The notes below the pieces were generated by a model. That model did not search any database. It was given only the letters and a program-made list of their open reading frames with translations, and was not told where the DNA came from. This document shows, in pieces, positions 1-6,044 of a stretch of 10,108 bases of DNA. Numbering within the stretch: position 1 is the first letter of the stretch; every line of letters begins with the position of its first letter. A program made the translations under genes and the position numbers. The DNA is from Escherichia coli (GTDB lineage: Bacteria; Pseudomonadota; Gammaproteobacteria; Enterobacterales; Enterobacteriaceae). Location of the stretch: NCBI RefSeq assembly GCF_003334335.1, contig NZ_QOWQ01000065.1. One strand, 5' to 3'.

Positions 1-1015
1 TCTGTACCCAGGTGGTGAACGGACTGTACGCCGTCCAGATATGGAATGTGATGGAGCGCGGCGGCGGAATTTCATTATCCGCGGCGCTGAAAAATGTCAG
101 ACCGTCACGAGTCCACATGCCCGTGTTTTCACAGATCCACCGCCCGTTACTCTGGTCAAGCTCAGACTGATGGATCACACAGCCATGATGCTCACAAAGG
201 TAGAAAACACTTTCTGGCTTATTCTTCTCCCACTTAAGACCGAAAGGCGAGGCATCATCGCCAAATTTCAGATACTGCTCCTCCCCACAGTGCGGACAGG
301 GCACATAAAAACGCATGAAATGTGCCGACTCGTTAGCGGCTTTTTCGATCTGGCAGGAGCCTTTGATTTTAGGCGTCGAGCCGCGAATGGATTTTGGCCA
401 TACCGAGCCCTCAATACGTTTATCCCCCAGCAGGGTTGGCGAACCCTCTTTTTCAACATCCGGTTCGAACGAGGAAAGCTCGTCATAACAAACCACATCC
501 ACGGATTTTTCACGGTAGTTTTTTGCTGCCGCTCCCCCCAGACACCAGAAACCCACACCGGAGGAAAAACGCTTCAGGGTGAGCGTATTATCGCGGTGTT
601 TTCTTCCGAACCATGGAGCCAGCTCCAGCAATGCAGGAACATCCCTTATCGTTGGCTCAACATGAGATTTCATAAAATCTTCAGCAGCTGAGTCCGTGGG
701 CTGAAAAAGAAGGCTGTTGCGTGATTTATGCTCAATAAAATAAGCCTCCACTCCCAGCAACATCTTTGTATAACCAACACGGGCAGATTTAATCAGGTTA
801 ACAGTGCGAATCAAATCGTTGCCCATACAGTTCATGATGCCAACCTGAAACGGCAGTGTTTCCCACCGCCCCGGGGTATAAGACGACTCTTTAGGAAGGT
901 AATAATGTTTATTGGCCCACTGAACTGTCGTCAGTGGAACAGGAATAATGAGAGATAAAAGCCCTGTAGCTATCGCACCGGCTGCATTAGCTGCCTTCTG
1001 TGCGTCTGAAATCAT
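1..1015 (-). CDS. A: Terminase large subunit (lambda gpA-like), partial: N-terminal ~338 codons, C-terminus beyond left edge
   Basis: Minus-strand frame is open from the ATG at 1015 to the window edge, so it has no in-window stop and is missing from the ORF track. My translation reads [13 protein letters not shown]...[27 protein letters not shown]...[14 protein letters not shown]...[16 protein letters not shown] recognise this as closely matching the N-terminal ATPase region of phage lambda gpA (recalled motifs ...VEWADANYYLPKES..., ...KSARVGYSKMLLGV..., ...[14 protein letters not shown]). The start overlaps the nu1 3' end by 29 nt, as in lambda. Confidence 0.9.
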
Positions 1016-1535
1016 CGATCCACCCGCCCACGTTTTCACCGGCCTTAGCTGCAACATTGGAGGCTTTCGCGATTTCAGTTTTCACCACATCAAGGTGTGA
1101 TGGTGAAATGTCCGGATATTTACGCTGTAATGTCAACGGCACACGCACAAGTATCCCCGAAATCTCCTGTGCCACACGTTGCAGAATGAAGGTAAACAGT
1201 TCAGTTTCCAGCACCACTCCGTCTTCACGGGCATTTTTCAGTTCCTGCGCATCTGCCTGCGCTTTTGTGAGCCGGTAGCGTTCATAGTCAATGGTGCCGG
1301 GTTGTAAATCTGACTCCGCTGCCGCACGCAAATCGGCCAGTTCTTTGCGGAGCTTTTCGTTTTCGATATCAGTTTCCCTCTGCGCATACCACTGAATTGC
1401 CATGGCAGTATCAAATACAGATTCAATGCCCTTACTGCCTTTGGAGACGCAAGGGAGCCCCTGAGACTGCCAGCGTTCAATCGTCCGCGGGTCCACGTTA
1501 AAAATTTCGGCAAGCCTCTTTTTATTAACCTTCAT
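987..1535 (-). CDS. nu1: Terminase small subunit (lambda Nu1-like)
   Basis: Track ORF 987..1559 (-). Protein shows an N-terminal winged-HTH-like segment ([24 protein letters not shown]), a P-loop-like GSKG, and ...[29 protein letters not shown]..., all recalled from lambda Nu1 (MEVNKKQLADIF...). Start chosen at the conserved MKVNKK (ATG at 1535); the track's upstream start at 1559 is possible but less likely. Confidence 0.9.
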
Positions 1536-1559
1536 AGAACAACCCATTATCAAATACAA

Positions 1560-1705
1560 GGCCCGACATGAAAACGCCAGAAAAAGGCATTTTCGGACAC
1601 TTTCATGTCGGACATTTATGAATGCAATATTAAAAAAAACAAAAAGTTATATTCGAGAAGTACCGACACGATTTTCCCTGAAAAATTTTCATAAATAGTG
1701 AAAAA
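1560..1705 (-). promoter_or_regulatory. cosB-like region (putative Nu1-binding R sites) between cosN and nu1
   Basis: Contains repeated and inverted copies of a GTCCGACATGAAAG / TTTCATGTCGG / GTGTCCGAAAA / GTGTCGGTAC motif family between cosN and the nu1 start. Position and repeat character match lambda cosB. Individual site boundaries are not resolved. Confidence 0.5.
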
Positions 1706-1710
1706 CCGCG

Positions 1711-1722
1711 AGGTCGCCGCCC
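1711..1722 (-). other. cosN cohesive-end site (12-nt GGGCGGCGACCT on the minus strand)
   Basis: Plus strand 1711..1722 is AGGTCGCCGCCC, the reverse complement of GGGCGGCGACCT, the lambda 12-nt cohesive end as I recall it. The minus strand continues ...CTCGCGGTTTTTCACTATTTATGAAAATTTTTC, nearly identical to the first ~45 nt of the lambda left end. It sits ~175 nt upstream of the nu1 start, the expected cos-Nu1 spacing. Confidence 0.8.
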
Positions 1723-1945
1723 CGTAACGGTCTGGATCACCGGAAAGGACCCGCCAACGACTTTCGCGTGCAGGCATTAAAAATTTTGCAGTTCCATGCC
1801 TAGTTGAAACCTCGATTTCTATAACATCCAATTTTGTAAATTTAGATATAGCTCAACTTTTCCCAATGTTTTCAAGTGTATAAAAACAATTGGCGTTACG
1901 CCATAACACTATACTTAGGATAAGTAAAGATTTTAAGGAGTTTTA

Positions 1946-3013
1946 ATGAGTCAACATCAATATTATCCACAGCTGAAATGGAAGCCTGCTGAATATGAAT
2001 CTCTGATGCTTTTAGATCAAACTACGCTCTCTGGTTTTACTCCGATCATTACCATTCCAGACATAGACTGGGATTATGAAAACGAATGCTACAAGAAGAG
2101 TTTGAGTTCTTACTTATCTGACTTCGGTATTAACCTTGCGGCATCCTGGAAAGCCAATCGTCCTGTTTTGCTGGATGTTAAATATTTAGATAAACATGGT
2201 TCGAGCCGCCATCATCCTCTAGATATGTGTATCCAAGATGCTAGAGTAAATGGTAAGGAAATTATCCCTGTTGTTTCTCCCGCATATTCAACAAACTATA
2301 TACATGCTGTTCAACGCAACTTAATCAATGGGCTCGCTATATCTATCCCCCCCCAGACATGGCACCAATTCACAAGTCTGGTTAACCACTTAAATATTCA
2401 TCCTAGTTTAATTGATGTAATCATTGATTTTGGAGATATTCAAAACGCAACTGATAGTTTAAAACAACAAGCATTAAGCATGGTCAACACATTATCAGGC
2501 CAAGCTCCGTGGAGAAACTTGATTTTATCTTCAACCGCATACCCAGCATCACAGGCAGGGATACCGCAACATCAAGTTCATCATATTCCGCGCCATGAAT
2601 ACGATCTTTGGATGTACGTAGTACAGAATTTTAGCAATGGAAGAACGCCAAGTTTTAGTGATTATCCCACCGCTAGCTCTACCATTACGAGCGTAGACCC
2701 ACGCTTCATGTCTCAGTATGTCTCAGTGAGATATTCGAACGATACCTCATGGATCTTTGTAAAAGGTACCGCAGTTAAAGGAAATGGATGGGGCCAAACT
2801 AAAAACTTATGTACTACCCTTGTTAGTTCGCCAGAGTATCAAGTCTTTGGTTCCAAATTTAGTTGGGGGGATGATTACATTTACCAAAGATCATTAGGCG
2901 CTAACAAATCTGGCGGCTCTAAAGAATGGCGTAAAGTTGCACATACGCACCATATTACGTTAGTCGTGAGACAGCTTTATTGGTTGGCGCAGACTCAGCC
3001 TGCCAAGCCTTAA
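1946..3013 (+). CDS. Hypothetical protein, 355 aa, cargo-island gene 1 (function unknown)
   Basis: Longest plus-strand ORF in the window. Strong SD (TAAGGAG at 1934..1940) about 5 nt before the ATG at 1946. Possible -10 TATACT at 1910..1915. Markedly A+T-rich codon usage compared with flanking phage genes. No motif I can assign to a known family. Confidence 0.75.
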   Translation: MSQHQYYPQLKWKPAEYESLMLLDQTTLSGFTPIITIPDIDWDYENECYKKSLSSYLSDFGINLAASWKANRPVLLDVKYLDKHGSSRHHPLDMCIQDARVNGKEIIPVVSPAYSTNYIHAVQRNLINGLAISIPPQTWHQFTSLVNHLNIHPSLIDVIIDFGDIQNATDSLKQQALSMVNTLSGQAPWRNLILSSTAYPASQAGIPQHQVHHIPRHEYDLWMYVVQNFSNGRTPSFSDYPTASSTITSVDPRFMSQYVSVRYSNDTSWIFVKGTAVKGNGWGQTKNLCTTLVSSPEYQVFGSKFSWGDDYIYQRSLGANKSGGSKEWRKVAHTHHITLVVRQLYWLAQTQPAKP

Positions 3014-3575
3014 CTTTCCAGCCTACGCGTTTCTTTAAGGCTGTTCTGACTTCAAGCCTGAGATTCGCTATTGGAATATTTTCCGCAATAATATTCCATA
3101 ACTCAAATCGGGGCTTGCTTTTGATTCCTTTGGAATAGCCCCATCGTTCAAGTACGTCGATACATTCATCTTTCCAAAGCAATTGAGCGAGCATCAATGT
3201 GTCATGGTTTCGATTAAGCTTTTCTCCACGCATGTGCTTTATAAGAATGGCGCCTTTTGGCCCAACAGAAACCGTTTTAACGCCCCACCAACCTGGGATT
3301 AACTTTAATGCTCCCTCAAGATGTTTCTCAGCTACGACAAGAGTAACCTTGTCCATTACAGAAGAATAATGCTTGATTTGAAGAGGCAAACGCTCCAAAG
3401 AGTCATATTCACTTTTGAGCTCGTACCCGTGTATAACACCATTTATTACAGCAATGTCTGCTCTACTGGCGCCAAGGGATATGGAAAATTCATCGACCAC
3501 AAGGCAGTCTGGATCTAAATGCGATTCTTTCAAAAGCTTATGATGCACCGCGAACCTAACATCTTGATCTTTCAT
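2955..3575 (-). CDS. Hypothetical protein, 206 aa, with PD-(D/E)xK-like nuclease motif; cargo-island gene 2
   Basis: Minus ORF with strong SD (AAGGAG, 5-nt spacer) before the ATG at 3575. N-terminal region VVDEFSISLGASRADIAVINGVIHGYELKSEYD has the E ... hD ... hExK spacing typical of the restriction-endonuclease-like (PD-(D/E)xK) fold. A+T-rich. Convergent with, and overlapping by 59 nt, the 355-aa gene. Confidence 0.75.
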   Translation of the reverse strand: MKDQDVRFAVHHKLLKESHLDPDCLVVDEFSISLGASRADIAVINGVIHGYELKSEYDSLERLPLQIKHYSSVMDKVTLVVAEKHLEGALKLIPGWWGVKTVSVGPKGAILIKHMRGEKLNRNHDTLMLAQLLWKDECIDVLERWGYSKGIKSKPRFELWNIIAENIPIANLRLEVRTALKKRVGWKVKAWQAESAPTNKAVSRLT

Positions 3576-3925
3576 GACTTCTCCTTACTCCCTCCGTTAT
3601 TGAATTATAGCGCACTGCATTTTACTGCATTTGAGAGATTTGACCACTTCAATCACAAAATGCTTATCTGCAGCAACAAGATTCATAGCCATACGACTAT
3701 GGTGATTACCTTTTGTCTGGAAAACTGACCATTCCACGAAGATCAGATAGGTCTATAGAATCTTGGTTTGTCATAGCGTTCGCCTTACTTTGAGATGAAC
3801 CTTTGCTGCATAGGAGATCAGCCCGTCAAGGCTCACCAGCACTAACTGACTACTCAAAGGCTCATTCCAAAGGGTTTGGTTCGACGTGGTTGAGTGCACT
3901 GCGGTGCGCGGTGAAATACCTGTAC

Positions 3926-5895: not shown

Positions 5896-6044
5896 ACCCC
5901 GTCTCCCGTTATCCGGAAGCTGACAACAATAAAAAAGCCACCAGTTAAGTACTGATGGCTCTGATAACTCATGCAGGCGTCTCAGACGACCCACTGACAC
6001 TACCGGTGAGTTTAACGATACCTTCCATTTGACTGGCTCACTTT

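Follow-up and report, generated by a model that had tools for sequence, protein, structure and literature searches.

The stretch of DNA analysed here, referred to as the window, comprises 10,108 nucleotides of Escherichia coli (NCBI RefSeq assembly GCF_003334335.1, contig NZ_QOWQ01000065.1). Its left part carries terminase genes and a cos site, and two cargo genes, lysis genes and a late region follow to the right. The orientation of the phage map is that of the minus strand, along which the late and lysis genes are followed by cos and then by the terminase genes. In the features given below, one per line, and in the text, left-end positions are counted from the nick along the minus strand.

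1..1015, minus strand: large terminase subunit gene, N-terminal 338 codons, leaving the window; open frame, 98.8% identical to gp2 of phage 21
987..1535, minus strand: small terminase subunit gene, homologue of phage 21 gene 1, 182 aa; 98.4% amino acid identity to gp1 of phage 21
1557..1573, minus strand: cosB R1 box, 17/17 to R1 of phage 21; inverted repeat with R2
1601..1616, minus strand: cosB R2 box, inverted relative to R3 and R1; 15/16 to R2 of phage 21
1637..1649, minus strand: cosB I1, predicted IHF binding site; 13/13 to the I1 annotation of phage 21
1658..1673, minus strand: cosB R3 box, AATCGTGTCGGTACTT, predicted main binding site of the small terminase subunit; 16/16 to R3 of OL657228 (50-65)
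1674..1705, minus strand: segment between cosN and R3 (left-end positions 18-49); record M81255 annotates IHF site I2 here, and the literature also places 'I2' here
1706..1727, minus strand: cosN, 22 bp, identical to lambda and phage 21; cohesive end at 1711-1722, 12/12 to phage 21
1728..1745, minus strand: cosQ-cosN spacer, containing the putative 'R4' of record M81255; without indel relative to lambda or phage 21
1746..1752, minus strand: cosQ (GGGTCCT), the packaging-termination subsite, -30 to -24 from the nick; intact
1946-3013, plus strand: cargo gene for a 355-aa 'beta family protein'; PADLOC PD-Lambda-2_C, 4e-32, and 'beta', 5e-10
2955-3575, minus strand: cargo gene for a 206-aa sce7726-family protein; NCBIfam NF033832, 2e-54, and PADLOC 'cll', 4e-31

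A cos site spans about 200 bp and consists of cosQ, cosN and cosB (PMC4669245). The 12-nt cohesive end of lambda, GGGCGGCGACCT, is present in the window as a single copy, at 1711-1722 on the minus strand. The scan for GGGCGGCGACCT tolerated two mismatches, with 0.71 matches expected by chance, so that chance was judged from the exact 22-bp cosN, TTACGGGGCGGCGACCTCGCGG; it occurs once, at 1706-1727, and was matched in none of 200 shuffled sequences. The minus strand of the window from 1800 to 1500 was aligned with the sequences of lambda (NC_001416) and phage 21 (OL657228, M81255) across their joined ends. Both the 12-base end (12/12) and the conserved bases flanking the nicks, by which a lambda-like cosN is recognised, are present within the whole 22-bp cosN. 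Of the 41 bases that follow the nick, all but those at positions 18 and 24 are the same in the window and in lambda; divergence begins at position 42, beyond which identity to lambda is low. The segment at 1674-1705 is the same as in phage 21 and differs from lambda at positions 18, 24, 42, 44 and 46-48; I2 is required for efficient termination (PMC4669245).

The sequence-only reading had described an intact cos, with the cohesive end of lambda and about 30 near-identical nucleotides next to it, and these observations were borne out: in the alignment to lambda cosN is undamaged, and intact terminase genes adjoin it. The extent assigned to the site, 1560-1722, was too narrow, as R1 reaches 1557 and cosQ lies at 1746-1752; the site itself is real, and its strand is the minus strand. 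The cosN shared with lambda is a trait of the family and is not evidence for lambda specificity. Phage 21 is one of the phages to which lambda-like cohesive ends are ascribed, and cosQ is highly conserved (PMC4669245).

The 7-bp GGGTCCT of cosQ is found upstream of cosN at the conserved spacing, its sequence and its distance from the nick being those of the phage 21 annotation (OL657228, 42902-42908) and of lambda. The final 13 bases of the spacer before the nick show four differences from phage 21 and five from lambda. The differences in the spacer of the window fall at -7 to -11, bases that are naturally polymorphic among the cos21 loci of IMG/VR, and the cosQ-proximal bases, GGTGATCC, agree with lambda and not with phage 21. 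Similarity to phage 21 ends just right of cosQ, and the right arm of that phage is unrelated to the window sequence beyond this point. Because 24 of the 30 columns just past cosQ are variable among natural cos21 loci (IMG/VR), cosQ marks a recurrent mosaic boundary.

Within cosB, TTTCATGTCGGRC is present in exactly two copies of opposite orientation, at 1561-1573 on the minus strand and 1601-1613 on the plus strand; the same pair was detected as a 27-nt inverted repeat (1558-1584 and 1590-1616), and R3, AATCGTGTCGGTACTT, is a third, looser copy. The succession of R3, an IHF site, an inverted R2 and R1 between cosN and the start of terS is that of a lambda-like cos, and lambda has the same overall architecture and a similar distance to terS, the ATG lying at about +188 in the window, +189 in phage 21 and +191 in lambda. 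The R boxes themselves are those of phage 21 (R3 16/16, R2 15/16, R1 17/17), with the core TGTCGG, whereas the R boxes of lambda have the core TTTCC. The sole mismatch to phage 21 in R2 is a G to T change at position 109 (window 1614). From position 1 to 187 the window and phage 21 differ at four places. Besides T109, there are two changes in the interval from I1 to R2 and a difference of one base in length just before the ATG; the four changes in the cosQ-cosN spacer have been mentioned above. The order and spacing of cosQ, cosN, I2, R3, I1, R2 and R1 are like those of the phage 21 cos (M81255, X02501, OL657228; genus Jouyvirus), and the subsites coincide with those annotated on an experimental basis in M81255 and OL657228. 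In database searches the cos region gave its best matches exclusively to phage 21 and phages related to it; in the records of the named phages 1W, PhiR57_1, ev017 and Lambda_4C10 cosN-cosB is the same but for one to three bases. It had been claimed that cosB has diverged and carries its own repeat family; the divergence and the repeats are real, but the repeats are the known R3-I1-R2-R1 set of phage 21.

The presence of R boxes and of the genes behind them bears on the possibility that the site is the cos of a phage-inducible chromosomal island (PICI), which would hijack the terminase of a helper phage. The cosQ and cosN of PICIs are nearly identical to those of lambda-like phages, and those of the E. 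coli PICI satellites (EcCI) are shared by the window; PICI cos sites, however, have no R-sequence repeats and are followed by rpp, not by terS (PMC9026076). The present site has three R boxes, and behind it come terS, terL and a full structural operon. Gene content thus refutes the PICI reading, the probability of which is next to nil.

The small terminase subunit (TerS) is 51.9% identical to Nu1 of lambda. Alignment columns 1-70 show 97% identity to gp1 of phage 21 versus 54% to Nu1, and columns 141-182 show 98% versus 31%. An NCBIfam search with TerS returned no useful family, only a sub-threshold HTH_BldC match. The full large terminase gene, annotated in the genome of E. coli BR1220 (NZ_CP093068), encodes 642 aa. 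The cognate terminase that phage 21 specificity calls for, a DNA-binding domain of the gp1 type together with a matching large subunit, is therefore encoded next to the site. Window 1-1722 is 98.3% identical at the DNA level to bases 1-1723 of phage 21, TerS is 98.4% identical to gp1 and TerL 98.8% identical to gp2; the packaging module is therefore of the phage 21 type.

It was also suggested that the prophage could be packaged by a lambda-type terminase, which is not to be expected for the initiation of packaging, cosB being that of phage 21 and TerS having S24 and 52% identity to Nu1. In helper packaging neither the lambda nor the phage 21 terminase starts packaging on the cosB of the other (PMC4669245). 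TerS contacts bp 55-63 of R3, lambda mutations at bp 56, 58 and 59 alter packaging, and E24 of lambda TerS interacts with bp 56 (PMC9026076). In the window the lambda sequence of R3 bp 55-63 is not found, as R3 differs from lambda at bp 56, 59 and 62; nor is the recognition helix of the Nu1 type with its E24, residue 24 being S as in gp1 of phage 21. Because the R boxes differ and TerS is merely 52% identical to Nu1, the specificity of initiation should differ from that of lambda and be of the phage 21 type.

The opposite assignment would make this a cos of lambda specificity, usable by lambda terminase and joined to a lysis module of the phage 21 type. It is highly improbable, even with a cosN identical to that of lambda, two differences in positions 1-41, and GGTGATCC next to cosQ agreeing with lambda rather than with phage 21. 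A lambda terminase arriving by translocation could probably cut here, because termination, which requires cosQ, cosN and I2, is independent of cosB (PMC4669245). Against lambda specificity stand the R boxes of the phage 21 type, with R3 differing from lambda at bp 56 and 59, where mutations are reported to affect lambda packaging (PMC9026076), and at bp 62, as well as the substitution of S24 for E24 in a TerS so distant from Nu1. The lysis genes also argue against it, since they are 81-83% identical to those of Qin and match phage 21 in the holin alone, at 72%.

The assignment to phage 21 can be placed in the context of a whole prophage. The window is 99.9% identical to the corresponding sequence of E. 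coli BR1220 (NZ_CP093068), with six differences, none of which lies in cos. The prophage of that genome, of about 48.8 kb, is located between a partial copy of ompW and the complete ompW gene and contains int and xis; its terminase, portal, protease, decoration, capsid, FI, head-tail and tail genes are annotated without defects. Related phage records are of about 48-50 kb, close to the size of this prophage, and near-identical copies occur in strains of goose, seawater, pig and human origin. A working cos is plausible because the prophage of the near-identical genome, at about 48.8 kb, has all head and tail genes without annotated defects.

A perfect cos can nevertheless outlive the phage. According to this view the site would be an intact but silent relic in a prophage that is defective elsewhere, in regulation, in replication or through a missense lesion, comparable to the cos sites beside nohA and nohD in the cryptic prophages of K-12. 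Cryptic prophages do retain perfect cos sites, and Qin of K-12 has an exact cosN while its head genes are gone. Unlike Qin, the prophage considered here has full-length terminase, portal, protease, capsid, tail, int and xis genes, and both its size, near that of the related phage records, and the near-identical copies in the goose, seawater, pig and human strains speak against a relic, which is thus unlikely.

In K-12 Qin, an exact cosN, a cosQ and a lambda-type cosB were located upstream of nohA (at about 2370-2560 of the locus analysed). The Qin cos is lambda-type, with R boxes beginning CGTTTCC and a Nu1-like NohA, and across cos and terS Qin and the window are 66% identical at the nucleotide level.

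Taken together, window 1557-1752 on the minus strand is very probably the complete cos of a lambdoid prophage with the head and packaging module of phage 21. Its subsites run in the order cosQ, cosN, I2 and cosB (R3-I1-R2-R1), and the genes for the small and then the large terminase subunit come next. As the homology to lambda and phage 21 suggests, the small terminase subunit would, after induction, grip the R boxes through its winged helix-turn-helix domain, and a bend introduced by IHF at I1 would bring R3 and R2 opposite one another. The large subunit would thereby be anchored on cosN and introduce nicks staggered by 12 bases, after which the DNA would be pumped into the prohead, terminase genes first, until the next cos, where cosQ, cosN and I2 would trigger the terminal cut. 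Growth of phage 21 reportedly depends on IHF, according to work of the Feiss laboratory. The site belongs to a thoroughly characterised kind, differs little in sequence from that of the type phage, and is ordinary and already known.

Beyond cos the window is a mosaic: cosQ forms the joint between packaging of the phage 21 type and a cargo cassette, with lysis genes like those of Qin and a late region like that of Stx phages further on. The mosaicism put forward in the sequence-only reading is therefore real, as is its Stx-like late region, but the packaging part is of the phage 21 type and not of the lambda type. Its 'phage-21/Qin-like' lysis module stands as far as Qin is concerned: the holin, ydfR-like and lysozyme genes of the cassette share 81-83% DNA identity with essQ-ydfR-rrrQ of Qin in K-12. 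The likeness to phage 21 right of cosQ is weak and is limited to the holin (72% nucleotide identity) and part of Rz (70%). Qin itself has a lambda-type cosB beside nohA, the reverse of the combination that had been proposed.

The two cargo genes immediately right of cosQ are convergent and overlap slightly. Among 50,697 phage records megablast gave no match to the cargo region, 1723-3900. Lambda and phage 21 carry bor in this same slot, between cos and the lysis genes, and the cassette fits the known pattern of cargo genes at this place; it resembles candidate defence genes and is a candidate anti-phage defence moron. Further to the right, the region 5900-10108, with a DNA methylase gene, tRNA genes and a gene for a NanS-p-like esterase, found most of its matches, with identities of 84-95%, in Stx-converting phages, but the annotation of the matching genome (NZ_CP093068) shows no stx gene there. 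Between the methylase and the esterase genes, at about 7900-9123, are three tRNA genes (Ile, Arg, Arg) together with a short partial ORF. In the Stx2a phage matches stx2A/B accompany the methylase and esterase genes.

The site is common. Of 5426 complete E. coli genomes, 601 (about 11%) contain a match to at least 80% of a 230-bp cos segment, and 63 records match this segment at an identity of at least 99%. When IMG/VR was scanned for exact matches to a pattern from the left end of cos21, 54 loci were obtained, which after filtering and alignment with MAFFT gave 27 haplotypes (37 loci); six haplotypes had a different cosB, and the length of the poly-T run varies. Both cosQ and R3 are invariant across the 27 natural cos21 haplotypes, invariance at positions +1 to +33 being uninformative, as these were fixed by the search pattern.

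The T at position 109 of R2, which changes a base that is C in all three R boxes of phage 21, is absent from the three other aligned phage records and present in 12 of the 37 IMG/VR cos21 loci. A lesion in R2 was accordingly rejected as an explanation of the G109T change, this T being found in 12/37 natural loci. T109 is linked to Val30 of TerS in all ten T loci, and G to Ala30 in all 18 intact G loci (IMG/VR); codon 30 lies at about 1446-1448 of the window, and Val30 adjoins the DNA-binding wing. That T109 and V30 form a co-adapted pair with a slightly shifted sub-specificity within the phage 21 class would be a very improbable explanation. Plain haplotype linkage over about 170 bp is more likely: the TerS sequences of the T/V loci are almost identical, an exchange of wings between lambda and phage 21 TerS reportedly leaves burst size undiminished (PMC9026076), and the perfect association is indistinguishable from clonal linkage.

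Fixing the specificity as that of phage 21 predicts which helper or co-resident phages could start, or merely terminate, packaging at this site, and it also predicts the ends of the virion DNA. The mosaic map is corrected as well, the phage 21-like block ending just right of cosQ beside the two-gene cassette that is a candidate for defence. The practical value is limited, and the current understanding of lambdoid DNA packaging is unchallenged.

Several further observations concern individual records. In IMG/VR the same cosN, with 33 initial nucleotides like those of phage 21, also stands before at least three further types of cosB: locus L015, a haplotype of seven loci, has a lambda-type cosB with CGTTTCC boxes and a Nu1-like MEVNKKQ start, L061 has boxes of the CCGGACAT type, and L068 boxes of the GGTTGTTGT type. 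These loci show that cosB and terS are exchanged as modules behind a common cosN. The record of phage ev017 (LR597643.1) opens with about 90 nt (positions 1-90) of poly-T and then CAAGCAGAAGACGGCATACGAGAT...AGATGTGTATAAGAGACAG, ahead of the cos left end. We take the stretch CAAGCAGAAGACGGCATACGAGAT...AGATGTGTATAAGAGACAG in LR597643.1 to resemble a Nextera/Illumina adapter, and the start of the deposited record looks like an assembly artefact.
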